A DNA stretch of 64,000 bases from Candidatus Cloacimonadota bacterium (GTDB lineage Bacteria; Cloacimonadota; Cloacimonadia; JGIOTU-2). The notes beneath the pieces are model-generated. The model made no database searches, was not told the DNA's origin, and saw nothing but the letters and a program-made list of their open reading frames with translations. The position numbers and the translations under genes were made by a program. Shown in pieces: positions 1-32,425 of this stretch (position 1 is the first letter of the stretch; each line of letters begins with the position of its first letter). The stretch is taken from the NCBI GenBank assembly GCA_030613025.1, contig JAUWMT010000001.1, positions 16,013 through 80,012 of the forward strand, in the 5' to 3' direction.

Positions 1-356
1 ACGGCGAAGATCAGTGTCCTCTTTTTTCTCCAGCAGACGCTTCTCTGCCCGTTCTTTTGCGCGCTCAGCTCTTTTTATATCAATGTCTTCAGGGCTCTCT
101 ATAGTCTCTGTGAAAACCCTTACCTTATCGACATCAACCATCACAAATCCATTCATTAAAGAATAGAGTTCCGGTTTATTGTTTTTATAAATTTTCAAGA
201 TGCCGGGTCTGACTGATGAGATAAATGGGGTGTGCCCGATCTGCACGCCGAAATCACCATCTGTTCCGGGTGCAACAATCTCGCTCACGTCATCTTCAAG
301 GAATATTCCTTTAGGAGTGACTATCTTCAAATGGAGTAATTGCGAATTATTAGCCA

Positions 357-357
<1 letters not shown>
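1..357 (-). CDS. atpC: ATP synthase F1 epsilon subunit. The gene is 3'-truncated at the window edge.
   Basis: The reverse-strand translation begins MANNSQLLHLKIVTPKGIFLEDDVSEIVAPGTDGDFGVQIGHTPFIS, which is typical of epsilon subunits. Its ATG at 355-357 overlaps the atpD stop in a TAATG arrangement, and it sits downstream of atpD in canonical operon order. Confidence 0.8.
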
Positions 358-2709
<2,352 letters not shown>

Positions 2710-2722
2710 AATTATCTTTCGC

Positions 2723-4411
2723 TTATGCTTCTTCGATTATTTCTTCTGCTATTACCTGATGTTCAAAGATGGTTTTCACCTTTTTGGATAATTCATGAAG
2801 CTGCTTTTCAACCTTTTCGGTCACACCTTCGGGCTTAATTAGTTCTTCCTGAAGCTTCTGATATTCTTTATCCATAATTTCGAAAAGCTCTGCCTGTACA
2901 TCCTGGATAATATCGACCGGTAGATCATCAAGATATCCTTCATAGCCCATAAAAATAATTGCTATCTGCTTAGCTACGGGAATTGGTTTATACTGTTCCT
3001 GTTTCAGGATTTCAACATATCGATATCCGCGATTGAGTTGATCCTGGGTATCTTTATCAAGTTCTGCGCCGAATTTTGCAAACGCTTCCAGTTCTCTGAA
3101 TTGTGCAAGTTCGATACGAAGTCTCCCTGCAACCTGCTTCATTGCTTTTATCTGTGCATTACCTCCAACCCTGGAAACCGAAAGAGCTGCATTGATCGCA
3201 GGACGCACGCCAGAGTAAAACAGCTTTGATTCAAGATATATCTGACCATCCGTAATTGAAATCACATTTGTAGGAATATATGCAGAAATATCGCTTGCCT
3301 GGGTTTCGATTATTGGTAACGCAGTGAGCGAGCCGCCTGTTTCCGGCAGCTTATACAGCTTATACTTATCTTCACCCAATTCTTTGAGATCTTTTTTTAG
3401 CTCTTCTGCACTCGATTTGATATGCAGCCGATATTCCTTTTTGTTCACGCCTTCTTTTGCACTCTTTTCATTTTTAGGTATAATAATATAAACCTCTTCA
3501 AGTTTAGATGCTCTCTCCAAAAGTCGTGAATGCAGATAGAATACATCTCCCGGATATGCTTCACGTCCGGGAGGTCTGCGAAGTAGGAGTGAAATCTGGC
3601 GATAGGCAACAGCATGTTTGGAAAGATCATCATAAACGACAAGAACGTGTTTTCCTCTATCGCGGAAATATTCGCCTATAGTTACACCGGAGTATGGAGC
3701 AATATATTGGATAGCAGCAGGATCAGATGCAGTTGCAGAAACAATTATCGTATAGTCCAGCGCACCGTGCTCTTTCAATGCCTCAACGACCTGGGCAACC
3801 GATGATCTCTTCTGACCAATTGCTACATAGATACAATAGACATTGGTATCTTTTTGATTTATTATCGTATCAACTGCAAGGGCTGTCTTTCCTGTTTGTC
3901 TGTCACCAATAATTAGTTCGCGCTGCCCGCGTCCAATTGGGATCATTGAATCGATCGCTTTCAGCCCGGACTGCAGCGGCTCTTTCACTGGTTGACGGGC
4001 AACCACACCGAGCGCTTTTCTTTCAACAGGCATGCTCAGCTTTGTTTTGATCGGCTCTTTTCCGTCAAGAGGTATTCCAAGCGGATTTACAATTCTTCCG
4101 AGCAACTCTTCGCCAACCGGAACCTGCACGATCTTCTTAGTCCGTTTGACAATATCACCTTCTTTGATCTTATCGCTCTCTCCAAGAATAATACAGCCGA
4201 CGTTATCCTCTTCCAGGTTCAGCGCCATACCGTATATTTCATCATTGAAAAGGACGAGTTCCGATGCCATGATATCCTGCAAGCCATATACACGTGCAAT
4301 ACCGTCACCGACTTCGATAACTCTGCCGACTTCGTCTATATCAACTTTATAGTTATACTTTTCAATCTTTTCTTTGATTATTCTACTGATTTCATCAGGT
4401 TGTATTTTCAT
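2723..4411 (-). CDS. atpA: ATP synthase F1 alpha subunit, carrying an internal insertion of about 38 aa
   Basis: The Walker A motif GDRQTGKT is present, together with the conserved stretches HSRLLERA and [13 protein letters not shown]. The protein is 562 aa against the usual ~505 aa. Confidence 0.93.
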
Positions 4412-4440: not shown

Positions 4441-4971
4441 TTAAAACTTCCTTCTCATCGCTTCCAGATTATTTCTGATCGATGCATTGATCGCCAGTTC
4501 ATCATTGTATGCAAAAAAACCGCCTTTGATGTGCGGATCGATCTTATGCTGAAAAAGTACTTTCCCATCAACATATTTTGAAATAAAAATTTTAATGTTT
4601 TCAAGAGTTTTTTCATCAACCTCATGGGCAGTTACAAGTTCAAAATCGAAGATGCCAAGCTTCTGATGTATCTGTCTGATTATTTCCTTTAGAATGTATG
4701 ATATAAAGAAAATTCTTTCCTTCTCGACAAGTACATTCAGAAAATTATGCAGTATATCAGAAGCTTCGAGCTCTTCAGCAATAAGAGCAATAATTTCTTT
4801 TTTATGCTCATCTTCTACGATTGGTGAAACCAAAAATTCTTGAATCTTCGGTTCATCTTTCATAATGGTTTGCAAGGCAATGATCTCATTCTCAAGTTGT
4901 GGTAGATCTTCTTTCTTAATAAGCTCAAGAAGTGCTGATGAGTATCGTCTTGCAATGATATTCTTAATCAA
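4441..4971 (-). CDS. atpH: ATP synthase delta (OSCP) subunit
   Basis: A 176-aa protein that begins [12 protein letters not shown], in the style of OSCP subunits. It lies between the b and alpha genes. Confidence 0.8.
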
Positions 4972-5464
4972 CAGACGACTCCTTTTTGCTGCTCTCTTCT
5001 TTTATCATCTCGTTAATGAGATTAATGTCTTCATCTTCAGTAAGCTTCTTGCCGATCATCTTATCTGTCAACTCAATGACGAAGTCTCCGATCTGAGTTT
5101 GAATGCTTTCTTTTGCTTTATTCACTTCAACATCTATCACTTCCTGTGCTTCCTGAATTATCACATCTCGCTGCTCTGCTGCATCATGCAGAATTTGCTC
5201 ACCCTGAATTTTCGCAATTTTTTTCGATTCGTCTCGGATATCTCTGGCTTCTTCTTTTGCTTTTATGAGTAATTCTTTCTGCTTTTCAAGAATCTTTTCA
5301 GACTTGTCTTTATGCTCTTTTGCGCTTTTTAGGTCTTCTCGTATCTGAGATTCTCTCTTGTTTATATAATCCATAAGCGGCTTATATAAGAGCTTTTTCA
5401 TGATAATCAGCAAAATAATGAAATTCACGATTACCAGAATAAGCGTATAATCAATACTAACCAT
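4964..5464 (-). CDS. atpF: ATP synthase F0 b subunit
   Basis: An N-terminal transmembrane helix is followed by a long charged coiled coil. The protein is 166 aa and lies between the c and delta genes. Confidence 0.8.
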   Translation of the reverse strand: MVSIDYTLILVIVNFIILLIIMKKLLYKPLMDYINKRESQIREDLKSAKEHKDKSEKILEKQKELLIKAKEEARDIRDESKKIAKIQGEQILHDAAEQRDVIIQEAQEVIDVEVNKAKESIQTQIGDFVIELTDKMIGKKLTEDEDINLINEMIKEESSKKESSVD

Positions 5465-5503: not shown

Positions 5504-5743
5504 TTACACTGCGAAAATAAGTAACAGGGAAATGACCAGTGAATAAATACCTGTTGATTCTGACACTGCCTGACCTACAAGCATTGTTCTTGTGAGCAGT
5601 CCTGCGTTTTCCGGAGAACGTGCAATGCCTTCGCATGCCTTTCCTGCGGTAAAACCTTCACCGATTCCAGGTCCGATTGCACCGAATCCCATACAAATAC
5701 CAGCACCTAATAATGCTGCCGCTCTAATGATTTCACTTTCCAT
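5504..5743 (-). CDS. atpE: ATP synthase F0 c subunit (single hairpin), with a Na+-type site motif
   Basis: A 79-aa protein with a G-rich first helix GAIGPGIGEGFTAGKA and the loop ARSPE. The second helix reads GQAVSESTGIYSLV. That is almost identical to the Na+-binding c subunits of Propionigenium and Ilyobacter at the E/S/T...Y positions. Confidence 0.9.
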   Translation of the reverse strand: MESEIIRAAALLGAGICMGFGAIGPGIGEGFTAGKACEGIARSPENAGLLTRTMLVGQAVSESTGIYSLVISLLLIFAV

Positions 5744-5767
5744 GTATCCTCCTAATGGATCATAAAA

Positions 5768-6499
5768 TTATGCTACAAATAATAATAAAAATGCAATAAC
5801 TAATGCATATATCGATGTTGACTCTGACACTGCAGCGCCAACGAACATTGTTCTTACAAGTATTGATGACTGCTTTGGAAATCTACTGATACCGTCAACG
5901 GCTTTTCCTGCCACAATACCGATACCGAATCCAGGACCGAATGTGCCGAAACCCATTGCAAAAGCAGCACCGATAAAGGCAAATGATTTCACAATACTGT
6001 TCCCATCCGGTGTTGAATAAAGAAGAAGCATCGCAATAACCAAAGCAAAGATAGCTGACGTTTCTGAAAGCGCCTGCCCGATAAGCATATTTGCAGTCAG
6101 CACCTTTGACTCACGCGGCTGTCTGCCGATACCCTGGCACGCTTGCCCTCCTGCATAACCGATACCAAGACCTGTTCCCAAACTTCCTGCTCCCATCACA
6201 AGTCCTGCGCCGAATAAAGAAGCAATTCTCTGCCAACCCGCATCAGGAACTATAGAGCCGCCAAAAAGAAGAAGCATCGCAATTACAAGTGCGAAGATAG
6301 CTCCGGTCTCTGTAATTGCCTGTGCAATGAGCATTGTTCGGAGAAGTATATCGTTAGATTTCGGTTGCTTCATCATCGCGATATTCGCATTACCTGCAAT
6401 ATAACCTTCTCCTATACCAGCGCCTATTGACGAAATACCAACTGCAAGCCCTGCGCCAAGATATGCTGCAACGTGTACTAAGCTAAAAGTATCAAACAT
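5768..6499 (-). CDS. Fused triple-hairpin ATP synthase c subunit (three tandem c-subunit repeats in one polypeptide)
   Basis: The 243-aa protein consists of three consecutive c-subunit hairpins of about 80 aa each. Each hairpin has a GxGxGxG first helix, an RQP/RFP loop, and a second helix that carries the conserved Glu: TETGAIFALV, SETSAIFALV and SESTSIYALV. Confidence 0.85.
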   Translation of the reverse strand: MFDTFSLVHVAAYLGAGLAVGISSIGAGIGEGYIAGNANIAMMKQPKSNDILLRTMLIAQAITETGAIFALVIAMLLLFGGSIVPDAGWQRIASLFGAGLVMGAGSLGTGLGIGYAGGQACQGIGRQPRESKVLTANMLIGQALSETSAIFALVIAMLLLYSTPDGNSIVKSFAFIGAAFAMGFGTFGPGFGIGIVAGKAVDGISRFPKQSSILVRTMFVGAAVSESTSIYALVIAFLLLFVA

Positions 6500-6500
6500 A

Positions 6501-7331
6501 TTATTTTATTGCCACTGCCGTATAAGACAGCACAAGCATTGTGAACACAAATGCCTGCACCGTTCCGATGAACAAACCAAAAAACAGATTAAGACCAACC
6601 GGAATGAGAATAAAACGTGTAAGATTAGACACAACAAGTATGATGATCGCACCACCAAGAATATTTCCAAAAAGACGGAAGGAGAGAGAAATGCCCTTTG
6701 CAAGTTCACCAACGATATTAATGGGAAGCATAAAAGCGATCGGCTCTGCGTATTCTTTCAGATACAGTTTGATGCCTTTTTCTTTAATTGCCGAGTAATG
6801 AACGACAATAAGCGCCATAATCCCGAGCCCAAGTGGAACATTTAAATTTCTTGTTGGTTCAAGATTTCCCGGAATGGGGATCAAACCGACAATATTACAC
6901 AACCAGATAAAAACGAAAATCGTAAAAATATAAGGAGTAAAATATTTCTTTTTCTCTCCGACAGTTTCTATCACAAGACTGGAAAAGAAAGAGTATATCA
7001 TCTCGGCAACGATCTGCAATTTCCCTGGTATCAGGTGCATTTTCCGTCTGACGAGTGCTGCAAATAATATCAGGAAAAGATCAACGAAAAGAATAACGCG
7101 CAGGACACTCCAATTTATGGTAAATTTCCTAAAAAGTTTTATCATATGATATTGCTGAAATTCGTGATTTATCTGGTCTTGAATTGATTTTTCGCTTTCA
7201 ATATTTCGAATTACAAATTTACCTTCATCAAATCCGAATTGAAGCTCATGATTAAGTCCAATAGACAGAATCCCCTCAATAATGATTATTGCGAGAATGA
7301 TAAGTAGTGCTTTCTTGGACTTTTTTTTCAT
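6501..7331 (-). CDS. atpB: ATP synthase F0 a subunit
   Basis: The motif SLSFRLFGNILGG carries the essential Arg. The protein is polytopic, 276 aa, and sits in the operon position immediately upstream of the c genes. Confidence 0.9.
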   Translation of the reverse strand: MKKKSKKALLIILAIIIIEGILSIGLNHELQFGFDEGKFVIRNIESEKSIQDQINHEFQQYHMIKLFRKFTINWSVLRVILFVDLFLILFAALVRRKMHLIPGKLQIVAEMIYSFFSSLVIETVGEKKKYFTPYIFTIFVFIWLCNIVGLIPIPGNLEPTRNLNVPLGLGIMALIVVHYSAIKEKGIKLYLKEYAEPIAFMLPINIVGELAKGISLSFRLFGNILGGAIIILVVSNLTRFILIPVGLNLFFGLFIGTVQAFVFTMLVLSYTAVAIK

Positions 7332-7349: not shown

Positions 7350-7733
7350 TTAAGATTCTTGATTATTTTTTCCTGCAAGAATACCATCGACGAGAACGAT
7401 AGCCGGAGCGATCAGCAAACCTGCAAGAAGAGAAAAAATATTTACTTCCAAAAATTTCACAAAAACGACTACAAAAACAACCAATATCAAATAGCGGATA
7501 TAGAAATTTTTGAAAACACTTAATTTCGCACCCGAGGGACTTAGTCCCACTCGATTTTCTGCACCCTTTGCCTGAAAATAAAAATTCAAACTTGAAAGAA
7601 TTGAACCAAGCAAATAGCCCAACCAAAGCTTCAAGTTTTGTGTGATAAGCAAAAGGGCTGGAATCTGTGTCAAGAAAATAACCCATAGAATATGATATAC
7701 ATATTTCCGAAAACTATTTGTCTGAATTTTCAT
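7350..7733 (-). CDS. atpI: AtpI-like small membrane protein (ATP synthase protein I)
   Basis: A 127-aa protein with about four transmembrane helices, directly upstream of atpB on the same strand. Confidence 0.5.
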   Translation of the reverse strand: MKIQTNSFRKYVYHILWVIFLTQIPALLLITQNLKLWLGYLLGSILSSLNFYFQAKGAENRVGLSPSGAKLSVFKNFYIRYLILVVFVVVFVKFLEVNIFSLLAGLLIAPAIVLVDGILAGKNNQES

Positions 7734-7950
7734 TTTTTTTGATAAGCTGGTAACATGAAAAGGCGCCGGAAACTACTCCACAAAAAATGCCGATTATTAT
7801 TGGAATTCCTCCAAGATTCCACTTTTTATCTATAAACAAACCGATAAAGAAAAAAATAAGAATGTTGATCACCATTGTGAGACCGAGCTGTGCTACAAGC
7901 CCGAGCCCTTCAAAAACCTCCTTATAATACCTCTTATTCTTCAACGACAT
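7714..7950 (-). CDS. atpZ: AtpZ-like small membrane protein (the family described as putative F0F1-ATPase subunit Ca2+/Mg2+ transporter)
   Basis: A 78-aa protein with two transmembrane helices and a GLGLVAQLGLTMV...GGIPIIIGIFCG pattern. It is the first gene of the atp operon. Confidence 0.45.
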   Translation of the reverse strand: MSLKNKRYYKEVFEGLGLVAQLGLTMVINILIFFFIGLFIDKKWNLGGIPIIIGIFCGVVSGAFSCYQLIKKNENSDK

Positions 7951-7955
7951 AGAGT

Positions 7956-8327
7956 TTATTTTTCTTTAGCTTTTTTGGTGCTTTTGGCAGTTTCGACCTG
8001 TTTGACACTACAATTCCCGCTAATCTGTGTTCCCGATTCCATAGAAAGGATCTTGGCAATAATGTCACCATTAATGAGCGCTGAACTTTTCAGTTCTAAT
8101 TTTTTTTCTATTGTGATATTCCCCTCAACCTTCCCGGAAATGATCGCTTCATCTGATTGAATGTCTGCTTTTATATTTGCCTTTTCTCCGATAAGTAAAA
8201 AGCCATCGCAGATTATCTTTCCATCTACTTCGCCATCAATACGAACACCGCCCTCAGAATGAATTTCTCCATTTAACTTCGTATATTCTCCAATAATAGT
8301 ATCCAGTTTATTTTCTCCGTTTTTCAC
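7956..8327 (-). CDS. Bactofilin (polymer-forming cytoskeletal protein)
   Basis: A 123-aa protein with a repetitive beta-helix signature (G.V.I.G.V.G.I..G). A Lys-rich tail is typical of bactofilins. Confidence 0.75.
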   Translation of the reverse strand: MKNGENKLDTIIGEYTKLNGEIHSEGGVRIDGEVDGKIICDGFLLIGEKANIKADIQSDEAIISGKVEGNITIEKKLELKSSALINGDIIAKILSMESGTQISGNCSVKQVETAKSTKKAKEK

Positions 8328-19493: not shown

Positions 19494-20846
19494 ATGCTCA
19501 AAGAATTTCGCTATACCGGAAACAATTCAGCCGGTAAACCCGTGCAAGGCGTTGTTCTTGCCAGTAACAAATCAAGCGCAAAAAAACTAATCCACGACAT
19601 AGAAAGCAAAGAAAGTATTTCTGTTAATAAAATTGATCAAAAGATTAATTTCAGATATAAAATAAAGCTGCCAAGCGGCAAAAAGGTAAAGGGAAAGCAA
19701 GCGGCTTTTTCCAAGCAGGAACTTTCACGGGCACTCTCCAATTTCGGATATGCCAATGCAAAGATCGAACCGGTCCTTTTTGATTTTCAATCGAAACCCT
19801 CATTTGCAAATATCCTGATGTTTGTGAACCTCAGTTCGTTTCTGCTTAAAGAAAAAATGACTTATGATAAGATCCTTCGTATGCTTGCAGATGAAGAGAC
19901 AAATCCAACGCTGAAAGCCACATTAAAGAAGATCGAAAGCGAACTCAAGAAAGGGAAGGAAGGAACAGAAGTTTTCAACCGATATGCAGATGTGTTCGGC
20001 AAGTTTCCTGCTTATATGCTTGGTCTTGCTACTAAAAGTGGAAATATGGCAGAAGTGTATGATGCTACATCCAAGTTTATGGAAAGGGATATGGAGTATA
20101 AGAAAAGTCTGCGTCAGGCACTGATGACGCCCATGTTCACAGTTATTGCGATGATAGCAGCAGTACTATACTATATTATTTCAATCTTCCCCAGCACTGC
20201 AGAACTTTTTATTAAATCCGGAATTGAGGTGCCCCCGCTGACTGCTGCAACCTTGCGGCTGAGTGATTTTTTTGGCGCTAACTGGTGGTGGATGGCGTTG
20301 ATGATCATAATACCAATTATTATTGTATTACTATGGTGGCGCACACCTGATGGGCGGGTTTGGCGTGATAGGATGATCATCAAACTGCCGATCATAGGAA
20401 AGCTTCTTCATAAATCAAGTATTGAAATTTTCTGCCGTGTTTTTGCGGCTATTTATTCCGGCTCCGAAAATAATATCGAGACTATCCAAGCTGCTGCAGA
20501 GGCATGCAGAAATGCACACATGGAAAAAAATATCAAAGAAATAACTATTCCCCTGATGTTGAAAGAAGGTATGTCCCTCGTGCCTGCGCTTGCTGCAGCA
20601 AAGGTGTTTAATCAGACAACTTTAAGCAGATTTAAAGCAGGTTCTGAAACCGGTAATGTACTCACTTCAGCTCAGCAAATCGCAAAATTTTATGAAAAAG
20701 AAACAACTTATAAAATGCAGAATTTAATTGCATCTATCCAAACACTCATTGGGGCATTTATAGGTATTGTCATAACTGCATTAACCATTGTTTCTGCGGA
20801 AGTCGCAACGGTTTCACCCAAAACACCCGGTATGCATGGTATCTAA
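19494..20846 (+). CDS. pilC: Type IV pilus / T2SS platform protein (PilC/GspF family)
   Basis: The N-terminal region FRYTGNNSAGKPVQGVVLASN is typical of PilC. Two T2SSF repeats are present, one around LLKEKMTYDKILRML and one around IFCRVFAAIYSGSENNIETI. There are three transmembrane helices and the protein is 450 aa. Confidence 0.8.
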   Translation: MLKEFRYTGNNSAGKPVQGVVLASNKSSAKKLIHDIESKESISVNKIDQKINFRYKIKLPSGKKVKGKQAAFSKQELSRALSNFGYANAKIEPVLFDFQSKPSFANILMFVNLSSFLLKEKMTYDKILRMLADEETNPTLKATLKKIESELKKGKEGTEVFNRYADVFGKFPAYMLGLATKSGNMAEVYDATSKFMERDMEYKKSLRQALMTPMFTVIAMIAAVLYYIISIFPSTAELFIKSGIEVPPLTAATLRLSDFFGANWWWMALMIIIPIIIVLLWWRTPDGRVWRDRMIIKLPIIGKLLHKSSIEIFCRVFAAIYSGSENNIETIQAAAEACRNAHMEKNIKEITIPLMLKEGMSLVPALAAAKVFNQTTLSRFKAGSETGNVLTSAQQIAKFYEKETTYKMQNLIASIQTLIGAFIGIVITALTIVSAEVATVSPKTPGMHGI

Positions 20847-20863
20847 GTAATCAAGGAAAATAT

Positions 20864-22648
20864 ATGTTAGGTAAATCACGCTTAGGAAAATCACTCGTTG
20901 ATAATGGAATCATTGATAAAGATATTCTTAACAAGGCGCTTATTATTCAGGCAGACGAGGACCCATACAATCCCAGAAGGTTAGAAGATATTCTTGTTAC
21001 GGACCTTAGGATCAAACATGATGATGTATACGGTCTTCTGGCTGATTTGTATGCTTTCAGAAAAGTTGATATTAATATAGATAAAATTGACCAAACACAA
21101 ATTGATCATACAAAAGATATACTTGCAAAATTTCCAGATGAACTGAAAAGAGAATTGCTCTATAAAAAGGTGCTTCCTTATCAGATTGCGCAAGGACGTC
21201 GATCAACACTCATCCTTCTTGCAGCTGACCCGACTGACAAAATTGTTGAGAAAATCCCACTCAATACTGAATTTAAAAAATATGAGGTTGCCTATTGTAA
21301 GCTCTCTACTATTGAAGAGCTTATCACGCTCATTGCTCCTCAAAAAAATGAATTCTTAGAACTCCTCAGCGAAGCCGGTGAGCAGATAGAGGAAGTAAAA
21401 GAAGAGGGCCAGGAAGAGAAAGTCGATGAATATGCTCTTGATGATGAGATCAATAAGAGCTTACTCGTCAATCTCTTTGAGGGTAGTCTTATTGAAGCTG
21501 TTAGAAAAGGCGCAAGTGACATTCATATCATACCATATAAACGCTCAAATGTAGACTTTTTATTCCGGGTGGATGGCAAACTTCATCAATGGCACCGACA
21601 GGAAAAAACCTCTCCTGAAGCCATTGCAGCAGTGGTAAAAGATAGGACAAACGGGATTGACAGATTTGAAAGAGATAATGCACAGGATGGTTTTGCACAG
21701 CGTATTGTTGATGGCTATTTGATCCGATTTCGTATTTCTGTTCTTCCAATTATCTCTGCTGAGTACGAACGCCGCTTTGAAAGTATCGTGATACGTGTAG
21801 TTGATGACAGAAATGTCATCACAGACCTTCAAAAATTGGGTCTTCAAAAACAAGCAGAATCAGATTTCTTAAAAGCAGTTAATAAATCAAAAGGCATTGT
21901 ACTTCTGACCGGTCCTACTGGAAGTGGTAAAAGCACGACCCTCATGGCTGCGCTTCATCATGTGATCGATCCTACTAGAAATGTGCTCACCTGCGAAGAC
22001 CCTGTCGAGTATGTTATCAAAGGAGCACGGCAATTGAAGATCGGAGCGAAGATGACCTTTGAGCAGGCAATTCGCTCAATCCTTCGTCATGATCCGGATA
22101 TTGTAATGGTTGGTGAGATTCGTGATAAGATCACCGCAGATGTAGCAGTAAAACTTGCAAATACCGGCCATTTAACTTTCTCTACACTACACACAAATGA
22201 TGCCCCAAGTGCGATATCCCGTTTATATAAAATGGGTGTTGAGACCTTCCTTCTTGCCTATGCAATGAATATTATTATTGCCCAGCGTCTTGTCAGAAAA
22301 CTCTGCCCCGAATGCAGGCGTCCACTTTCGCGAGACAAATACAAAGGAGCTCTCGAACTGGGTCTCACGGAACAAGATTTGAAAAAGGGGTTAGTATATG
22401 AAGCTGGTCCCGGCTGTAAAAAATGTATGGATGGTTATAAAGGACGCGTGAACATCTGCGAAGCTCTATATTTTACAGATGAGATCAGAAAAGCGATCAT
22501 GGAATCCGGTAAAGAAATCGACGAAGATAAAATCCGCAAAATTGCAGAAAGTCAAGGCATGCTTTCTCTTCATGATTCCGGACTGGATAGAATCCGCAAA
22601 GGACTTACCTCTGTTTCTGAGGTGTCCTATGCGACTTCTGAAGGATAA
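20864..22648 (+). CDS. pilB: Type IV pilus assembly ATPase (PilB/GspE family)
   Basis: An N-terminal GspE_N-like domain is followed by the Walker A motif LLTGPTGSGKSTTL, Asp and His boxes (VGEIRD), and the tetracysteine motif CPECRR...CKKCMDGY. The protein is 594 aa. Confidence 0.9.
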   Translation: MLGKSRLGKSLVDNGIIDKDILNKALIIQADEDPYNPRRLEDILVTDLRIKHDDVYGLLADLYAFRKVDINIDKIDQTQIDHTKDILAKFPDELKRELLYKKVLPYQIAQGRRSTLILLAADPTDKIVEKIPLNTEFKKYEVAYCKLSTIEELITLIAPQKNEFLELLSEAGEQIEEVKEEGQEEKVDEYALDDEINKSLLVNLFEGSLIEAVRKGASDIHIIPYKRSNVDFLFRVDGKLHQWHRQEKTSPEAIAAVVKDRTNGIDRFERDNAQDGFAQRIVDGYLIRFRISVLPIISAEYERRFESIVIRVVDDRNVITDLQKLGLQKQAESDFLKAVNKSKGIVLLTGPTGSGKSTTLMAALHHVIDPTRNVLTCEDPVEYVIKGARQLKIGAKMTFEQAIRSILRHDPDIVMVGEIRDKITADVAVKLANTGHLTFSTLHTNDAPSAISRLYKMGVETFLLAYAMNIIIAQRLVRKLCPECRRPLSRDKYKGALELGLTEQDLKKGLVYEAGPGCKKCMDGYKGRVNICEALYFTDEIRKAIMESGKEIDEDKIRKIAESQGMLSLHDSGLDRIRKGLTSVSEVSYATSEG

Positions 22649-22650
22649 TA

Positions 22651-23085
22651 ATGACATCCGGACAAATATTCCTCATTCTTCTTGCAATGATTCTGTTTTC
22701 AACCATCTATCTGACAACGTACAACAGTCTCTTTGATCAGGCGGATATTGCGTATAAAGGGATGTATCTTTTGAACGGACAGAAAATTACCGATAAATAT
22801 TTTCAGGAGATCGAAGCAAATATACTTGGAGAAATAGTATTGTTTGATTCATTGCAGCATATCTATAACGGTTTGTCAGACACCCTTACTGTCTCTGATA
22901 TAGTCTATAATATAAACATTTCTACAACTCCATGCACTCAAAGCGGTGCAGATACGACTACCGTAACACCTGAATTCATTCGAATAGATATAAGCATGTG
23001 GGCAATCCACCCCGGCGGAGACACGCTCTGGATAGGTATGCCCGAATTTCCGATAAGTAAAGTTTTTGTGGACCTGTATTATTAA
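22651..23085 (+). CDS. Minor pilin-like protein with an N-terminal hydrophobic helix
   Basis: The 144-aa protein starts MTSGQIFLILLAMILFSTIYL and is immediately downstream of pilB. Confidence 0.4.
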   Translation: MTSGQIFLILLAMILFSTIYLTTYNSLFDQADIAYKGMYLLNGQKITDKYFQEIEANILGEIVLFDSLQHIYNGLSDTLTVSDIVYNINISTTPCTQSGADTTTVTPEFIRIDISMWAIHPGGDTLWIGMPEFPISKVFVDLYY

Positions 23086-23087
23086 TT

Positions 23088-23642
23088 ATGATTACATTAT
23101 TAGAATCAATCGCCGCAACGATAATTGGTGGAATATTTATTCTCACCATGATCACCTCGATCATTAATATTCAAGCGGTTGGTGTGAATACAAGTCAGCA
23201 GATTCAGCTGGTAGAAATTTCCGAAGATGTGGTCTCTGTGATAGAAAGTTATCTTTCTCTTGTGGGTGCCGGCGTGGCAGATTCAGTTGATGCGATCATA
23301 TCTACTCAAGACACCTTATTCAGCTACTCCTATGCTGATAGCGTTGGAGGATCTCCACACGTTGTTAATATGACGCAAGAAAATATTAACGGAGCAAAAC
23401 AGCTCTCTGTGTACGTAGATGGTAGCGTAACTCCTGCTCTTGGTCCCTTTGAATTATCTGATTTTGGTATTCAGTTCACCTATTATGATATTAATGACAA
23501 TCCAAATCCGGCAGATTCTCTTGTACGTTATGTTCAAATGATTATGGAATTTGAATATGATACCTACCGAGAGGATATAGATAAAAGATTTATTCGTCAT
23601 CGAATTCGAATCTGGAAATATTTTAAGAATCTATATTTATAG
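23088..23642 (+). CDS. Minor pilin-like protein with a TLLE (T-L-I-E-like) N-terminus
   Basis: The 184-aa protein starts MITLLESIAATIIGGIFILTMI. A Glu at position +5 relative to Ile2 mimics the mature type IV pilin N-terminus F-T-L-I-E, but only Met precedes it. Confidence 0.45.
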   Translation: MITLLESIAATIIGGIFILTMITSIINIQAVGVNTSQQIQLVEISEDVVSVIESYLSLVGAGVADSVDAIISTQDTLFSYSYADSVGGSPHVVNMTQENINGAKQLSVYVDGSVTPALGPFELSDFGIQFTYYDINDNPNPADSLVRYVQMIMEFEYDTYREDIDKRFIRHRIRIWKYFKNLYL

Positions 23643-23725
23643 TAATATGTATTTATTAATAAAAGTATTGACAAAAAGGCAAATAAAATGTCTTTTGCTG
23701 GTAGAAAATATTTTTTGATTAGGGG

Positions 23726-25594
23726 GTGCCCATGGGCAAAGCAGTTTTGATAATGATAATACTCCTTGCCGTGATCGTCGTTGTGGCGACTGTAACTGTT
23801 TCAGTTGAAAGAAAGGCTGATGTTATTCCAGAAAAGCTCGCAGAGAATGAAGTACGATCCGACCTGATAAATCTTGGAGCTTATGCTCTCAAGTGGGGTA
23901 TTAAACAAGTCCGCAATGAAAATATCACCGAATCAAATTCATCCATTTTTGATGATGAAAGTAGTTCTTATCATTATGCATTTTTTGATGTTCCTGCTCT
24001 TGACGGAAGTATCGATATGATCACCTATGAATTTGGCGATACTCTGACTGTCGAAGGAGGTGGTGGTGAAGGAGAGGAAGAAGAAGAGGAGGAAGAAGGC
24101 GTTACAATACCATCTCTTGATATGGTTTTTGCAAATGGAGCAATTACTCTTACCGGCAGCGCGAGTATCAATGGAACAACAGGAACTAACTCCACTGTTG
24201 ATAACAGTGTTAATTTTGCATGGAGCACACAGGTTGATGGTGATTTTTATGTAGGACCCGGCGCTGATTATACAAGTGTGATCAACTCTGCTGGGTGGGG
24301 ACGTGTACCAGAGGATAACATTACGGGTACAATTTCTAATCTACCTGCAACGAGAACTTATCCTCTTCCCACTTATCCTAATTTCCCGGAACTAACCGAT
24401 CAAGGTTCTTTCAGTACACCATGGACTCCTTCAGGAGAATATCTTATTGATGATGACGGATATTATTCTTCAATAAGTGCCACAAGCAGCAGAACGATCA
24501 CGATCGATGTGGGATCCGGTACCAGAAGAATAGTTGTCGGAAGTCTTAGTGTTGGGCAAGGATATATTGAACTTCTGGGAACCGGCGATCTTATATTTTA
24601 TGTTGAAAATTCATTTTCCCTTACAGGAAGCAGTATTATCAATACCGGCGGTGATGCAAGCAAGGTTCATATGTACTACTCGGGTGCAACAGACCTGAAT
24701 TTCGCCGGTGCGACCGCATATAATGGTTCTATTTATATTGAAACTGCCAATATTCACATAGGTGGTTCGGGCGGTATTACTGGTCATATTATTTGTGGCG
24801 GCTCAACGGTTGACGTCACTGGTGCAGCAAATGCCTATGTGAGAGCACTGTATGCCCCAAACGCAGCAGCATCAATTACCGGCTCCGGAAGTATTAGCGG
24901 AATCCTTGTAGCAAACACCATTTCTGTTTCTGGCAGTGGAAATATAACTGCTGATAACAGCTGGGCAGATCCGGTACCCGACATCGAAGATGATGAAGAT
25001 GAAGAAGCTTCAGAAGTTGCTGGATTTTATACAGTCCAGCTTGACATCACGGCACTTGTAAGTGAAGATGAATATGGAAATGAAACGGATCATACAAGCT
25101 TCGCAACTGTTCTCTTCAGCTATTCCGGCGGTGAATCAGAAGAGGAAGAAGAAACTCCAGCCCTTTCAATGGAAGCAGATCTTCATATAAATCCCACAAA
25201 CAATTCTTCTAAACGTTTTCAGATGCAAACGCCAAGTGGGCAGATAGATAGAGGAACGCTCCTTTCGGGCGGTTCATCATATACATACTCTGGTTCTGCA
25301 ACAGAAATTAGACTACAACCAAAATCAGACGGAAGAACTATTACTGTAAATGGAAGCGACATAACCCTCGCCACAAGTACCGCTTATACAATAACCTCAG
25401 ACAGCATGACCGTAAATCTTAGAAACTCTCACGGACCTGGAAATGCAATGGGTCATTGGTGGATTGAAATAACCTGCACCGACCCGACAGTTTCACCAGA
25501 TCCGGGGCTTCCTGAACCTGAAGAGGAAGAACCGGAAGAAGAAATTGGAGAAATAACCTTAGAGGACATCGAAATCCTCTACTGGCAACCGTAA
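23726..25594 (+). CDS. Large pilin-like or tip-associated protein with poly-Glu tracts and Gly/Ser/Thr-rich beta-helix-like repeats
   Basis: The 622-aa protein has an N-terminal transmembrane helix MPMGKAVLIMIILLAVIVVVATV. It contains acidic runs (GGGGEGEEEEEEEEG, DIEDDEDEEASE, ESEEEEET, PEPEEEEPEEE) and a repetitive region (ITGSGSISGILVANTISVSGSGNITAD). A strong ribosome-binding site AGGGGGTG precedes it. Confidence 0.5.
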   Translation: MPMGKAVLIMIILLAVIVVVATVTVSVERKADVIPEKLAENEVRSDLINLGAYALKWGIKQVRNENITESNSSIFDDESSSYHYAFFDVPALDGSIDMITYEFGDTLTVEGGGGEGEEEEEEEEGVTIPSLDMVFANGAITLTGSASINGTTGTNSTVDNSVNFAWSTQVDGDFYVGPGADYTSVINSAGWGRVPEDNITGTISNLPATRTYPLPTYPNFPELTDQGSFSTPWTPSGEYLIDDDGYYSSISATSSRTITIDVGSGTRRIVVGSLSVGQGYIELLGTGDLIFYVENSFSLTGSSIINTGGDASKVHMYYSGATDLNFAGATAYNGSIYIETANIHIGGSGGITGHIICGGSTVDVTGAANAYVRALYAPNAAASITGSGSISGILVANTISVSGSGNITADNSWADPVPDIEDDEDEEASEVAGFYTVQLDITALVSEDEYGNETDHTSFATVLFSYSGGESEEEEETPALSMEADLHINPTNNSSKRFQMQTPSGQIDRGTLLSGGSSYTYSGSATEIRLQPKSDGRTITVNGSDITLATSTAYTITSDSMTVNLRNSHGPGNAMGHWWIEITCTDPTVSPDPGLPEPEEEEPEEEIGEITLEDIEILYWQP

Positions 25595-25598
25595 AATC

Positions 25599-26489
25599 AT
25601 GGGAAAAGCAATTCTTGTCATCTCTCTTTTGTTACTTACCGTCGTAGTAGGCATTGTCATCTCCAGCGGTAAACGTGGCGGTGACGTTCCGGAAATCATC
25701 ACTGATGATATTGCACAGATACAAGCACGCTCACTTTCAAATTATGCGCTTCAATATGGTATAAGACAGCTTCTGAAGGGAAATGTCACATTTGTAGACA
25801 GCACGCGCGGTACAATTAATAACTTTGCACCCCTCGATGTTTTAGATGGTACTATAGATAGTATTATTTATTCACCTGCTACCGATGGAACGATCCGTGT
25901 AGATTCTTATGTGAGTTATCTCGAGTTGGAATCTCTGGTTAGTCATCACGGTTATGCACGATTTGGTTTTTATACAGACGAGGGGGCGGTTCTTAGCATC
26001 ACCGCTGCAATTGTTACGGGTGGTTCAATAACTGTTAAAGCCCAAGCAGTTATTAGTGGTATAGTTGTTGAAGATTCCACCTTCGATTTTGCCGGTGTTT
26101 TCGGTATGACAGAACAAGAATTTAAGGATGAGTGTATCTCGCGGGGCTCGTATATTGAAACTCCTGCCAATAATGAACCAATGCCTGATAGTCTGACCTG
26201 GATGAATGACGATTTACGAGTCCAGAGTAACTGGTCAGGGGCAGGAATTCTCGTTGTGAATGGTGATTTTAATGCAACTGCTCAAATTACTTTTGACGGA
26301 ATACTGGTCGTTTTTGGCGAACTCACCATTGGGGCTCACTCTAATATCACCGGTGCTGTGTATGTGATAGGGGATGCAACAGTTGGTGCTCATGCTGTTA
26401 TTAGCTTCGATGCAGATGTTGTTTCGGACGCCTTTGATGCTCTTCCTATAAACATCTCTTTAGAAATAGCGGAGTGGAATGAAGGATAA
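25599..26489 (+). CDS. Paralogue of the preceding protein (pilin-like N-terminus, beta-helix-like C-terminus)
   Basis: The 296-aa protein starts MGKAILVISLLLLTVVVGIVISS, which resembles the MPMGKAVLIM... start of its neighbour. Its C-terminus ITGAVYVIGDATVGAHAVISFDADVV is similar to repeats in the neighbour. Confidence 0.5.
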   Translation: MGKAILVISLLLLTVVVGIVISSGKRGGDVPEIITDDIAQIQARSLSNYALQYGIRQLLKGNVTFVDSTRGTINNFAPLDVLDGTIDSIIYSPATDGTIRVDSYVSYLELESLVSHHGYARFGFYTDEGAVLSITAAIVTGGSITVKAQAVISGIVVEDSTFDFAGVFGMTEQEFKDECISRGSYIETPANNEPMPDSLTWMNDDLRVQSNWSGAGILVVNGDFNATAQITFDGILVVFGELTIGAHSNITGAVYVIGDATVGAHAVISFDADVVSDAFDALPINISLEIAEWNEG

Positions 26490-26514
26490 AAAATAAATAA
26501 ATAAGGATAAACTT

Positions 26515-27414
26515 ATGGAGCAAATTAGATTATTAGATTCGGAAAAATTGATGTTTTTCTGGTGGTTAAAAATTCGCTGGTTTATTGTGCTCATACTTTT
26601 TGCGATCGGCTTACTTCGCATTGGCATGGTTAGCCAAACTATTCCTGTAGTCGTTTTTGTTGGTGCATTCCTCGGTATAAGCGTTCTCAATATTCTTTTT
26701 CATCTTCAGATCATTACTTCCAATAATATTATCGGAGCTACTCAGATCGTGCTAGATATTATTTTTGGAACCATAGTTGTTCATCTTACTGGTGGACTTG
26801 ACAGCTCGTTCGTTTGGATTTACCTCGTTGCGGTTGTCACTGCGAGTTTATCGATCGAAAAAGCAGGTGGTTTTATTGCGGCTATGATCGGAGGTATGAG
26901 CTTGCTGGTGCTAATTTTAATGTATAACTTCGGCTGGCTTTTGCCCGTTAATGGTAATGTATATAATTCAGATGTTGCGATCCAGACGATCTTTCTTATA
27001 TCCTACACGGGATTGTTCACTGTAATTGCTTTCATCTCAAGCTATACCAGCAATATAGTTAGAAAGCTTTCACTTAAAGTGCTGGAAGCGAATGACAAGC
27101 TCAAGAACCAGGAAGATTATTTACTGGATAAGGAAAAAAAGATGGTTATCGATGAAAAGCAAATCAAGGATTATAAAGAAGTCGTGCAAGTTTCGTCAAA
27201 TCTTGCTGGAATCGACCATGATATCAATAATCCTCTAAGCATCATCTCGCTTTCTTTAAGCAGAGTAAAAAGAGCGGCAAGCGAATATAATGATGAAAAG
27301 CTTCACAAATCCAGCAATCAAATTACAGAAGCGATAAATAAGATCAATGGTATCCTCGTACGGCTGCAAGATTTGAAGCGGCTACCTCTGATCAAGCAGG
27401 CAAGAAAAAAATAA
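26515..27414 (+). CDS. Polytopic membrane protein with a C-terminal HisKA (dimerisation/phosphoacceptor) domain and no ATPase domain
   Basis: About 5-6 transmembrane helices are followed by a coiled coil and the H-box NLAGIDHDINNPLSIISLSLSRV. The ORF ends about 60 aa later, so no HATPase_c domain is present. Confidence 0.6.
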   Translation: MEQIRLLDSEKLMFFWWLKIRWFIVLILFAIGLLRIGMVSQTIPVVVFVGAFLGISVLNILFHLQIITSNNIIGATQIVLDIIFGTIVVHLTGGLDSSFVWIYLVAVVTASLSIEKAGGFIAAMIGGMSLLVLILMYNFGWLLPVNGNVYNSDVAIQTIFLISYTGLFTVIAFISSYTSNIVRKLSLKVLEANDKLKNQEDYLLDKEKKMVIDEKQIKDYKEVVQVSSNLAGIDHDINNPLSIISLSLSRVKRAASEYNDEKLHKSSNQITEAINKINGILVRLQDLKRLPLIKQARKK

Positions 27415-27432
27415 ATCTGTCAGGATATTTAT

Positions 27433-28284
27433 ATGCAAAAACACATTTTAATCATCGATGACGAGGAAAGCATCAGAGAGCTGTGTAAAGAATTTTTGGA
27501 AGAAGACGGCTATAAGGTCACTCTTGCTGTTGACGGTCAAGATGGTCTTGATAAAATGAACTATGATGACTTTGATCTCTACATGATTGATATGGTCATG
27601 CCCCGCCTGGATGGGCTGGAAACCATGAAGCGTATCAAGAAGAAGCAACCCCTTGCCGTGATCATCATCACTACAGGATTTTCCAGTATCGAAGGTGCGG
27701 TAAAAGCAGTTCATGCTGGTGCGTTTCAGTATCTTTCCAAACCCATCAATGCAGAAGAACTTCTCGAAGCAGTAAAAAAGGGGGTGCAATATGGAGAAGA
27801 TCTATACGGTCCTCTTCAAAAAGCCTTTGAACCCGGAACTGAAGGCACAAAAAATGAGCCGGCTATGCTGCATGGATTCACCAAAGAAGAGAAGGTTGAT
27901 TTTTTGGCAATTGGAAGGGCACGCAAATTTGAAGCCGGTCAAACTATTGCTCTTGATAACGAAAACTCTGATTCAATCGTGCTTGTAGAATCCGGTGAAG
28001 TATCCATCTGGCTAAGTAATAACACCGTTGACTATCTCCGAAAGAATGATTCCTGGGCAGAAGAAAACTTCATACTGGCAAATTCCGAATTCACTACTCT
28101 TCGATCCGAAACAGCATGTATGATACGTTTTTTCGAAAGAAAGAAGCTTCTTGACTTCTTCGCCTACAAGGGCGAGCGTCTGATGAAACGGTTCATGATC
28201 AACCTCATTAATTGTCTCTTTTCAAAATGGAGAAAATCCATTCAACGTATTGTCATGCTCAAGCTCGTAACCGGAGAAAAATAA
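27433..28284 (+). CDS. Response-regulator receiver domain fused to a cyclic-nucleotide-binding-like (cNMP/Crp-type) domain
   Basis: The receiver domain has ILIIDDEES, the acceptor aspartate in LYMIDMVMP, and YLSKPI. The C-terminal ~120 aa (FLAIGRARKFEAGQTIALDNENSDSIVLVESGEVSIW...) resemble a cNMP-binding beta-barrel. Confidence 0.6.
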   Translation: MQKHILIIDDEESIRELCKEFLEEDGYKVTLAVDGQDGLDKMNYDDFDLYMIDMVMPRLDGLETMKRIKKKQPLAVIIITTGFSSIEGAVKAVHAGAFQYLSKPINAEELLEAVKKGVQYGEDLYGPLQKAFEPGTEGTKNEPAMLHGFTKEEKVDFLAIGRARKFEAGQTIALDNENSDSIVLVESGEVSIWLSNNTVDYLRKNDSWAEENFILANSEFTTLRSETACMIRFFERKKLLDFFAYKGERLMKRFMINLINCLFSKWRKSIQRIVMLKLVTGEK

Positions 28285-28358
28285 TCTTTCTTCAAGATCA
28301 ATTTATTTATGATATTGAATATGATAATCAACAATAACAAAGCATAGGCAGGTCTGCT

Positions 28359-29573
28359 ATGGGTTTATCATTTACACCGGAATTGCTTGTTGGTTTACCC
28401 GAATACTTAACTGGAACAAACCGTTTCCAGAACATTAATAAAATCATAACCTACAATGCTGCGTGGCGTGAAGAAGCATACGAACATCTTCGTAAACTTC
28501 TCAAGTACATGCGGGAAATAGATGCTTCTGACCTTGATATTGGCGGTCCCGGCTCAAACAATAATGTGTGGTACAGAATTTACGGAACTAAATCGCCCAA
28601 CAAGGAGATGCCTCATTATAATAACGATGAGGTAACAGCGATCCTTCTCAGCGTGCTTTCCGATGACCAGAAAGTGCTTCTTTTTAAAGATAAAAACGTT
28701 GACCTTTCTGTCGGTATGGTTCTTGAAGAAGGAGAACGATCGAGCAGGTTCCGTAGCGATATCTATTATGAAAGCAATGTACTTGTAGGAAACTTCCGTA
28801 GGATCAATCAAAATCTCTTTAAAATTGAATCTCTTGGATTTCCACTACCGATCATGCAAAGAATGGATCTGCAATATGAAAAATCCGGGCTCATCCTCAT
28901 TACCGGTATTACCGGTTCGGGAAAGAGCAGCACTTTGGATTCTATTATAGACATGAACAATCATAATAATGATGCACATATTATAATTCTTGGCGCACCC
29001 ATTGAGTATGTTCATAAGTCTGATAGGTGTATTCTTCGTCACAGGGAGGTCGGTGAAGATGTGCTTTCCTTTAAGAATGGTGTTGTTCAAGCTTTACGGC
29101 AAGATCCCGACATTATAATTGTCGGCGAGATGAGAGAGCCGGACACCATCGCCAGAGTGCTGGAAGCAACAGACAGTGGACATAAAGCATTTTCAACTCT
29201 GCATACAAGCTCTGCTATTGATAGTATTCATAGAATTGTAGGTGAATTCCCGACAAGAGAACAGGAGCGAATTCGTCTTCGCCTTGCTGATACGCTCTCT
29301 GTCATTATTTCTCAAAAATTGGTCCCAAATATACAAGGCAAACGAAGTCTCGCAAAAGAAATTCTTTCTGTGACACCTTCTGTAAAAGCAGCAATCCGAA
29401 ATCAGAATATTAATGAGATATATCAGATGATCACTGAAGGAAAAAAATACGGCATGATAACACTCGAACAGGATCTTTTCAATCTGCATAAGAAAGGTGA
29501 AATCTCAAAAGAGGTTGCTATGAACTACTCTAATAATAGAAAAAGAATGCAGCAGCTTCTAACTTACTCATAA
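28359..29573 (+). CDS. pilT: Type IV pilus retraction ATPase (PilT/PilU family)
   Basis: Contains the Walker A motif LILITGITGSGKSSTL, the Asp box GEMRE, and the His box AFSTLHTSSA. The protein is 404 aa with an N-terminal extension of about 60 aa and no tetracysteine motif. Confidence 0.85.
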   Translation: MGLSFTPELLVGLPEYLTGTNRFQNINKIITYNAAWREEAYEHLRKLLKYMREIDASDLDIGGPGSNNNVWYRIYGTKSPNKEMPHYNNDEVTAILLSVLSDDQKVLLFKDKNVDLSVGMVLEEGERSSRFRSDIYYESNVLVGNFRRINQNLFKIESLGFPLPIMQRMDLQYEKSGLILITGITGSGKSSTLDSIIDMNNHNNDAHIIILGAPIEYVHKSDRCILRHREVGEDVLSFKNGVVQALRQDPDIIIVGEMREPDTIARVLEATDSGHKAFSTLHTSSAIDSIHRIVGEFPTREQERIRLRLADTLSVIISQKLVPNIQGKRSLAKEILSVTPSVKAAIRNQNINEIYQMITEGKKYGMITLEQDLFNLHKKGEISKEVAMNYSNNRKRMQQLLTYS

Positions 29574-29580
29574 TTATATA

Positions 29581-32421: not shown

Positions 32422-32425
32422 TGCC

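Follow-up and report, generated by a model that had tools for sequence, protein, structure and literature searches.

Why should the rotor of an F-type ATP synthase be encoded by two c-subunit genes, one of which joins three hairpins in a single chain? The question is raised by the stretch of DNA analysed here (the window), 64,000 nucleotides of a marine Candidatus Cloacimonadota bacterium (GenBank assembly GCA_030613025.1, contig JAUWMT010000001.1, positions 16,013 to 80,012 of the forward strand), in which a complete F-type operon on the minus strand, with the gene order atpZ, atpI, a, c3x, c, b, delta, alpha, gamma, beta, epsilon, holds a fused triple-hairpin c gene (c3x) directly ahead of a canonical single-hairpin gene (c1x). 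In a rotary ATP synthase the ion/ATP ratio is set by how many ion sites the c ring has, and this ratio decides whether ATP can be synthesised near the thermodynamic limit or a steep gradient built up by ATP hydrolysis. The Cloacimonadota are fermenting and syntrophic anaerobes that matter in anoxic marine basins as well as in digesters. We propose that c3x and c1x of this Na+-type F1Fo ATP synthase probably form a heteromeric, hybrid c ring, whose ion count would be set via the fused subunit. The features on which the proposal bears most directly are the following.

6501..7331, minus strand: atpB, Fo subunit a, 276 amino acids (Pfam PF00119, E 7.8e-49; TIGR01131 above cut-off)
5768..6499, minus strand: c3x, fused triple-hairpin F-type c subunit, 243 amino acids (three ATP-synt_C stretches)
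6248..6499, minus strand: hairpin 1 (H1) of c3x, residues 1-84 (E31 codon 6407-6409, E64 codon 6308-6310; helix-2 motif ITETGAIF)
6005..6247, minus strand: hairpin 2 (H2), residues 85-165 (I113 codon 6161-6163, E146 codon GAA 6062-6064; motif LSETSAIF)
5768..6004, minus strand: hairpin 3 (H3), residues 166-243 (I193 codon 5921-5923, E226 codon 5822-5824; motif VSESTSIY)
5747..5753, minus strand: Shine-Dalgarno (SD) sequence AGGAGGA ahead of the single c gene, read from the sequence; c3x is without such a site
5504..5743, minus strand: c1x, canonical single-hairpin c subunit, 79 amino acids (one Pfam ATP-synt_C match)

An earlier first-pass annotation of the window had described a 243-residue open reading frame (ORF) of three c hairpins directly upstream of a 79-residue c gene, and had expected six helices from a topology prediction. 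Both expectations are borne out. Pfam ATP-synt_C (PF00137) matches the longer protein in three stretches (E 1.2e-45) within an intact operon, and an AlphaFold2 model computed with 91 homologues shows six helices arranged as three hairpins (4-44/46-79, 89-126/128-161 and 169-206/208-242), confident and with the linkers included (predicted local distance difference test, pLDDT, 93.2; predicted template modelling score, pTM, 0.87). The hairpin loops, KQP in H1, RQP in H2 and RFP in H3, fit the R/K-x-P loop of subunit c. The model for F0F1 subunit C, NF005521, scores 169.7 bits on c3x against a cut-off of 122, the V-type K model NF004913 reaches 70 bits against 211, and the N-ATPase (alt-F1F0) c model reaches 128, just under its cut-off of 130.85. 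The alpha and beta subunits match the atpA and atpD equivalogs and delta is present, which places c3x in a canonical F1Fo setting. By hairpin, carboxylate and operon c3x belongs to the F-type ATP synthase subunit c family, PF00137/TIGR01260. Two other identities were considered and rejected: that of a V/A-type proteolipid, as the V-type K models fall far below cut-off and the gene does not lie in an A1Ao/V1Vo cluster, and that of an N-ATPase c subunit, as the c model stays below its cut-off and the F0F1 subunit C equivalogs lie above theirs. The nearest solved structure is c1 of Acetobacterium woodii (4bem_J), both by sequence (E 1.8e-26) and by fold (root-mean-square deviation 1.6 A over 165 columns); no entry in the PDB spans all three hairpins of c3x. 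For c1x the PDB matches are A. woodii c1, Ilyobacter tartaricus 1yce (E 4e-21) and Fusobacterium nucleatum 3zk1 (E 6.4e-21).

We next describe the ion sites by signatures that give residue 32 and then residues 63-70 in I. tartaricus numbering: E/VSESTGIY in the single c, E/ITETGAIF in H1, I/LSETSAIF in H2 and I/VSESTSIY in H3. As the first-pass annotation had it, the ion-binding glutamate is kept in all three hairpins, where E64 (H1), E146 (H2) and E226 (H3) align with I. tartaricus E65, and the E-S-T...Y residues of H3 and the single c fall exactly on the Na+-site positions known from I. tartaricus and from F. nucleatum. The second carboxylate that it had noticed in helix 1 is likewise present at the Gln32 position of H1 (E31) and of the single c (E29), but it is not new, as this is the motif of F. 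nucleatum (PMC3692424); together with E62, S63, T64 and Y67 it gives the single c a complete two-carboxylate Na+ motif. The broader claim that all Na+-type site residues are in place holds for the single c and H1 and fails for the sites of H2 and H3, which have isoleucine at position 32 (I113, I193), neither glutamine nor glutamate, and which would be faced by the Phe70 (in place of tyrosine) and Gly/Ser67 of H1 and H2.

How the sites would be completed between hairpins follows from two known structures. In I. tartaricus the Na+ site is made of Q32 and E65 of one subunit and of S66 and the V63 carbonyl of its neighbour (PMC2359735), and in NtpK of Enterococcus hirae the Na+ bound by Glu139 and Gln110 of hairpin 2 is also held by Leu61 and Thr64 of hairpin 1 (PMC2359735); from this geometry the carboxylate of hairpin n should be served by residues 63, 66, 67 and 70 of hairpin n-1. 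Covariation in 185 distinct multi-hairpin proteins agrees with this rule: Tyr70 in one hairpin is followed by Glu65 with Glu or Gln at 32 in the next in 26 of 26 cases, and hairpins lacking Tyr70 are followed by such a site in 3 of 382 (table [[379,3],[0,26]], p = 4e-38, no phylogenetic correction). A. woodii c1 obeys the rule as well, its hairpin 1 (ETSGIF) facing the dead Gln site of hairpin 2. Complete two-carboxylate Na+ sites of the F. nucleatum type would thus centre on the single c and H1, where E32 and E65 would be completed by V63, S66, T67 and Y70 of a preceding single c or H3; the H1 site is complete by its residues if either of these is its neighbour. The sites of H2 and H3 would be ligand-poor, with I32 and E65 on the one side and T66, G/S67 and F70 as donors on the other, and should have a lower affinity for Na+ and a stronger preference for H+. 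In many Cloacimonadota (L026, L037, L038, L042, L043, L045, L063-L071 and others; related loci are given here by L numbers and proteins by P numbers) H2 has an aspartate at position 67 (LAQTDAIF), which by the neighbour rule would face the Ile32/Glu65 site of H3 and is a possible alternative second carboxylate.

The fused gene is no peculiarity of the window. A search of 5.8 billion proteins returned 584 relatives, of which those of 240-255 amino acids belong to Cloacimonadota/Cloacimonetes wherever a source is named, and those of 321-327 (four hairpins) and 401-405 (five hairpins) carry the name Desulfobacterales. In a species-level genome collection, the best 80 loci, which were examined, all hold a triple-hairpin c gene, 79 of them in Cloacimonadota metagenome-assembled genomes (MAGs) and one in a bin labelled Armatimonadota; every complete locus among them has a single c gene directly after it, and the order a, multi-hairpin c, single c, b is found in 78/78 loci with both c genes on the contig, as well as in five-hairpin loci and in a Margulisiibacteriota three-hairpin locus. 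The triple-hairpin c gene is therefore the rule across the phylum. The search of other Cloacimonetes for c genes of about 240 residues that the first-pass annotation had suggested has a positive outcome, and its view of the arrangement as unusual has to be divided: the triple hairpin is not unusual in this phylum, and what is unusual is the glutamate of H2. When 1.84 billion cluster representatives were searched exhaustively with HMMER, 81 clusters were found at E <= 1e-30, one of them from Hydrogenedentota, with 2, 3, 4, 5, 7 or 11-13 hairpins. For a common origin of the Cloacimonadota and Desulfobacterales multi-hairpin genes the deep-node bootstraps are 14-46%.

Two further groups of fused genes came to light in these searches. 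Desulfobacterales-like F-type operons (L010 7001-8218, L011 7001-8209; P0014, P0016, P0033, P0035) encode c subunits of four or five hairpins that have only one or two carboxylates, in patterns such as E,Q,Q,Q,E and E,Q,Q,Q,Q; a complete single c comes next. Ion/ATP ratios would be very low if several copies of such a subunit were incorporated. Metagenomic proteins P0137 (968 amino acids), P0173 (1139), P0223 (1042), P0258 (784) and P0171 (524) have 7-13 tandem c hairpins, nearly all with Glu65, and resemble the single-chain rotor of Methanopyrus kandleri.

Within the Cloacimonadota the number of carboxylates in the fused subunit varies between 0, 1, 2 and 3, counted over those 78 species loci in which both c genes are present. 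The single c hardly varies, with E/VSESTGIY in 75/78 and Q at position 32 in the other three. H3 keeps Ile32/Glu65 in about 73/78, H1 has Glu32/Glu65 in about 42/78 and Ser32 with Gln or Gly65 in about 30/78, and the carboxylate position of H2 is glutamine in 71/78, as in A. woodii c1, most relatives having Asn, Ser or Ala32 with Gln65 (CAA) in this hairpin. The all-Glu pattern is found in seven (L012 NIOZ-UU3, L013 MAG213-F140, L014, L018, L019, L073 and L087). The H2 glutamate is accompanied, in L019 and the window clade, by a change from Asn32 to Ile32 and of the helix-1 motif from G[AP]A[FL]GNGY to GTGLGIGY, the codons of the two alleles being GAA against CAA and ATC/ATT against AAT. Between c3x and four species-level relatives the synonymous substitution rate (dS) is 0.5-1.3 and the nonsynonymous rate (dN) 0.014-0.026, omega (dN/dS) is 0.01-0.04 in each hairpin, and the GAA codon of E146 is preserved in all four. 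On these counts and rates the three-carboxylate state of the window is a minority, maximal allele under purifying selection. At the other extreme, intact operons with a carboxylate-free triple-hairpin c were found in L044 and L093 5001-5753 (P0067), and a protein of this kind in P0111, the signatures being S/ASQTAGIF, A/LAQTSAIF and I/ISQSTAIY.

The alleles of H2 have a mosaic history. Over the other operon genes the window is about equally close to L012, L015 and L016 (~85-96% nucleotide identity) and more distant from L013, L017 and L018 (~77-85% for most genes). c3x departs from this pattern, with 79.6% identity to L015 and 72.2% to L016, and the c3x of L016 resembles that of L017. Sliding windows and a maximal chi-square scan place a divergent tract against L015 at window positions 5917-6317 (minus strand), covering the end of H1, the whole of H2 and the start of H3, with 70% identity inside and 91% outside (chi2 = 142). 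Similarly, L019 (Glu) and its sister genome L020 (Gln) fall from ~93% to ~76% identity over H2 only, the Glu-type H2 of L019 not being a copy of that of the window clade. A second mosaic tract covers the spacer between c3x and c1x and the first part of c1x (5642-5767), 71% identical to L012 as against ~92% elsewhere. We infer that 5917-6317 is a recombination cassette existing in Glu/Ile and Gln/Asn versions of H2, and H2 appears to have been exchanged by recombination between close relatives. As c3x is mosaic and its tree is at odds with those of the flanking genes, the c3x gene tree is not a species tree, and a simple point reversion to glutamate in H2, which can be drawn on the c3x tree, is weakened by the same mosaicism and discord. 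Glutamine is clearly the majority state of H2 in the phylum; inside the window clade the Glu/Gln change may have run in either direction.

We propose a model for the rotor that most reasonably fits these observations. c3x and the strongly translated c1x would assemble in one ring, much like c1 and c2/c3 in A. woodii, and this ring would rotate against subunit a such that every loadable carboxylate moves a single ion in each turn. Where a usable carboxylate is lacking, the hairpin would pass the stator empty and thereby lower the ion/ATP ratio, so that the family of fused subunits would serve to fix how many ion sites a turn involves and, through them, the Na+/ATP ratio; the same case has been made for V-type c subunits and for A. 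woodii (PMC9171764). The allele of the window would have one carboxylate per hairpin, with two of the three c3x sites ligand-poor. A mixed ring of triple and single subunits is the most reasonable reading of the gene pairing: the pair of c3x and single c is conserved in every complete locus, which we count as support for co-assembly, and a carboxylate-free c3x beside a complete single c in an intact operon would make sense only if both co-assemble. As to proportions, a GGAGG-type SD precedes c1x in 72/81 loci and c3x in 18/81, and in the window c3x, without such a site, starts 1 nucleotide past the stop codon of atpB (TAA-T-ATG), which suggests few copies of c3x and many of c1x. All Na+ F-type rings known in 2013 had 11 hairpins (PMC3692424); if this held here, which is speculation, the ring would be c3x(1)c1x(8), c3x(2)c1x(5) or c3x(3)c1x(2).

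Several points weigh against this model. Co-assembly, copy numbers and ring size are predictions from the genes, and SD strength is a poor guide to stoichiometry. The geometry of the sites is drawn from homology and covariation, and all 26 Tyr70-positive cases in the covariation come from four- and five-hairpin proteins. Na+ binding at the Ile32/Phe70 sites is still conceivable, as is a complete lack of ion exchange there. In trees, the hairpins of A. woodii c1 (c1-H1 and c1-H2) and its c2 form a group with the c subunits of I. tartaricus and F. nucleatum at 100% bootstrap, separate from the Cloacimonadota hairpins; A. woodii c1 thus arose by an independent duplication, and the analogy would be one of function and not of descent. 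MAG contigs may be chimeras of strains, which could inflate the mosaic pattern. Finally, no Na+ pumps (Rnf, Nqr, decarboxylases) are found inside the 64-kb window.

An alternative that accepts the hybrid ring, and that we regard as unlikely though deserving of serious attention, is that the H2 glutamate, and perhaps that of H3, is no transport site at all. Buried by Ile32 and Phe70, it would stay protonated and behave as the glutamine of the relatives does, and the Na+/ATP ratio of the enzyme would be lowered to the level of A. woodii and the Gln-type Cloacimonadota. The absence of a position-32 ligand in H2 and H3, donor helices that have neither Tyr70 nor Thr67, the single nucleotide that separates Glu from Gln (GAA/CAA) and the ability of 71/78 species to cope with Gln in H2 all fit such a silent residue, and there is a precedent in F. 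nucleatum, where the second glutamate, Glu32, is constitutively protonated and helps to coordinate Na+ (PMC3692424). Against this, E146 has been conserved over dS > 1 at an omega of ~0.02, and in the window clade and L019 the Glu version of H2 is invariably paired with Ile32 and a restored GxGxGxG motif in helix 1, a co-occurrence that points to a co-adapted functional site. Furthermore, the retention of glutamate by H3 in about 73/78 species, in the same Ile32 setting, argues that Ile32/Glu65 sites are in use.

If the glutamates of H2 and H3 are in use, they may not carry the same ion as the others. Fewer polar ligands around the glutamate are expected to raise H+ selectivity, and one operon here encodes two clearly distinct site types; the single c and H1 sites could then carry Na+ and the H2 and H3 sites H+, both gradients being coupled in each turn. 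Graded selectivity among c rings, with a promiscuous enzyme in Methanosarcina acetivorans, has been discussed by Schulz et al. (PMC3692424). This mixed-ion rotor seems to us rather improbable, since a single channel in subunit a would have to serve both ions, and since Na+ so vastly exceeds H+ in marine settings that even weak Na+ sites may carry Na+.

It is a good deal harder to believe that the two genes serve alternative homomeric rotors, all c3x or all c1x, made under different conditions. The presence of two different c genes in one operon would allow for this, as co-assembly is itself inferred. Yet both genes share that operon, with no obvious independent regulation, the conserved c3x versions of relatives that have a single carboxylate or none would be unable to power a homomeric rotor, and A. 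woodii, with the same gene order, forms a mixed ring (PMC9171764, PMC7911925).

Least of all can the 243-residue ORF be put down to an assembly or sequencing fusion of three c genes, the artefact of which the first-pass annotation had warned, or to a decaying pseudogene: nothing beyond the existence of tandem c genes in other bacteria (A. woodii atpE2/E3) speaks for it, and the intact contigs, the omega values, the low identity between hairpins and the confident model with its linkers refute it. The exact protein is absent from the protein records looked up, and a 97%-identical protein (P0001) with the same E/E/E key residues stood in for it in a survey of contigs, where 19 contigs, drawn from at least 8 independent samples, each have it as an intact ORF within this operon. 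Intact triple-hairpin ORFs of 240-257 amino acids are present in 80 species-level genomes. H1, H2 and H3 are each monophyletic in the Cloacimonadota (100% bootstrap) and share 44-51% of their residues and merely ~54% of their DNA, so that the triplication is old, and repeat collapse or repeat-induced misassembly is excluded. The ORF is a genuine, strongly conserved atpE1-like gene.

With the mixed c3x/c1x ring as the preferred reading, a wider proposal can be put forward, tentatively and with less confidence than the ring itself. The Cloacimonadota, and some Desulfobacterales, Hydrogenedentota and Margulisiibacteriota, may run hybrid rotors with c subunits of three to five hairpins, in which the number of carboxylates (0 to 3 or more) acts as an evolvable gear; marine Cloacimonadota would reset this gear by swapping the H2 cassette, and the window would represent a high-gear allele with two site types, possibly for Na+ and H+. 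To our knowledge, A. woodii has the only characterised F-type enzyme in which a fused c subunit lowers the ion/ATP ratio, with Clostridium aceticum as a genomic parallel. A whole phylum now appears to use a three-hairpin version with 0-3 carboxylates, and other lineages versions with four or five hairpins, which would make rotor gearing, if the reading is true, a widespread and evolvable trait. The H2 alleles, Glu or Gln in genomes ~90% identical over the operon, would moreover provide a natural series in which site number and chemistry can be set against coupling and ion selectivity.

The remaining genes of the operon are better listed than described.

7714..7950, minus strand: atpZ-like small membrane protein (ATPase_gene1), first gene of the operon (Pfam PF09527, E 4.4e-11)
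7350..7733, minus strand: atpI, c-ring assembly factor (Pfam PF03899, E 1.4e-8)
4964..5464, minus strand: atpF, subunit b (Pfam PF00430)
4441..4971, minus strand: atpH, delta/OSCP (Pfam PF00213)
2723..4411, minus strand: atpA, alpha, 562 amino acids, with a clade-specific insertion of ~49 (TIGR00962, 777 bits)
1843..2709, minus strand: atpG, gamma, by operon position; the 288-residue counterpart ORF in the near-identical locus L001 has PF00231
357..1862, minus strand: atpD, beta, 501 amino acids (TIGR01039, 843 bits)
1..357, minus strand: atpC, epsilon, the N-terminal 119 codons, cut by the window start, by translation; the L001 counterpart ORF has PF02823/PF00401

The insertion in alpha, Lys/Glu-rich, occupies residues ~313-361 after LLERASKL in the nucleotide-binding domain and occurs only in the subclade of the window, L012, L013, L015, L016, L017 and L018 (alpha of 562-572 amino acids), other Cloacimonadota having alpha subunits of ~499-525 without it. 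Beta has ~15 extra N-terminal residues and a charged C-terminal tail of ~26 beyond the atpD model (match 16-475), and is 506-519 amino acids long in relatives. Directly upstream of the operon lies a bactofilin gene (7956-8327, minus strand), as it does in L001, L009, L093 and the five-hairpin L011, and further upstream gidA/gidB/parA/parB and an M23 peptidase; with MnmE and YidC elsewhere in the window, this neighbourhood suggests an origin-proximal region. A type II secretion/type IV pilus-like cluster on the plus strand (19494-36304) comprises T2SSF, two T2SSE ATPases, a secretin, a TPR protein and an LVIVD-repeat protein, and is bordered by two-component and sigma-54 regulators.

Full-text literature searches turned up no account of an F-type c subunit with three hairpins, an earlier mention being possible. 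Papers of 2021-2026 give the F-type c subunit as a single hairpin or as the double hairpin of A. woodii (including PMC9171764, PMC7911925), and the genome papers on Cloacimonadota that were consulted name the enzyme a Na+ F-type ATP synthase and leave the fused subunit unremarked. Closest in setting are the four- and five-hairpin F-type c subunits of uncultured Desulfobacterales, Hydrogenedentota and others (P0014, P0016, P0033, P0035, P0123), which take the same operon position as c3x; their first and last hairpins are like H1 and H3 and their internal hairpins have Gln, such that they differ from c3x in having more dead internal hairpins, with 1-2 carboxylates per 4-5 hairpins, deep bootstraps being < 50%. 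Covalent multiplication of hairpins, with or without loss of sites, is also seen in the archaeal A1Ao proteolipids of Methanocaldococcus jannaschii (three hairpins) and Methanopyrus kandleri (13) (PMC2359735, PMC9171764), but these belong to A/V-type enzymes, whereas c3x is an F0F1 subunit C in a canonical F1Fo operon.

Among the rings of single hairpins, c11 of I. tartaricus and Propionigenium modestum (PDB 1YCE) has E65-S66-T67...Y70 in register with the single c and H3 of the window; these rings are homomeric and have Gln32, where the window has Glu or Ile. The c11 ring of F. nucleatum (PDB 3ZK1; PMC3692424) shares Glu32 and Glu65 with the single c and H1, and the motif GPGIGEG...ESTGIYSLV with the single c, but it too is homomeric and built of single hairpins, whereas Glu32 is present in only two of the four hairpin types of the window.

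The F/V hybrid rotor of A. woodii (a double-hairpin c1 with one site lost, and c2/c3; PDB 4BEM) and c1/c2 of C. aceticum come nearest to the proposed ring. Here, as in the window, a multi-hairpin c gene stands directly after atpB and is followed by a single c with a Na+ motif (gene order atpB-atpE1-atpE2; PMC7911925), and the presumed purpose of the A. woodii rotor is a lower Na+/ATP ratio (PMC9171764, PMC7911925). The likeness to A. woodii c1 is greatest in most of the Cloacimonadota relatives, with Gln in H2 and Phe70 in the preceding hairpin. The window differs from it in having three hairpins and not two, with Glu in every hairpin and thereby without the carboxylate loss that defines the A. 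woodii type and that 71/78 related species show, in Ile32 instead of Gln32 in H2 and H3 and Glu32 instead of Gln32 in the single c and H1, and in that its rotor is known from genes, whereas the mixed ring of A. woodii has been characterised. Triple hairpins in archaeal A-type enzymes and the two-carboxylate Na+ motif of F. nucleatum were known already, as was, from A. woodii, the principle of a multi-hairpin hybrid rotor; what appears to be new here is a triple-hairpin c subunit of the F type, with its variable carboxylate number.

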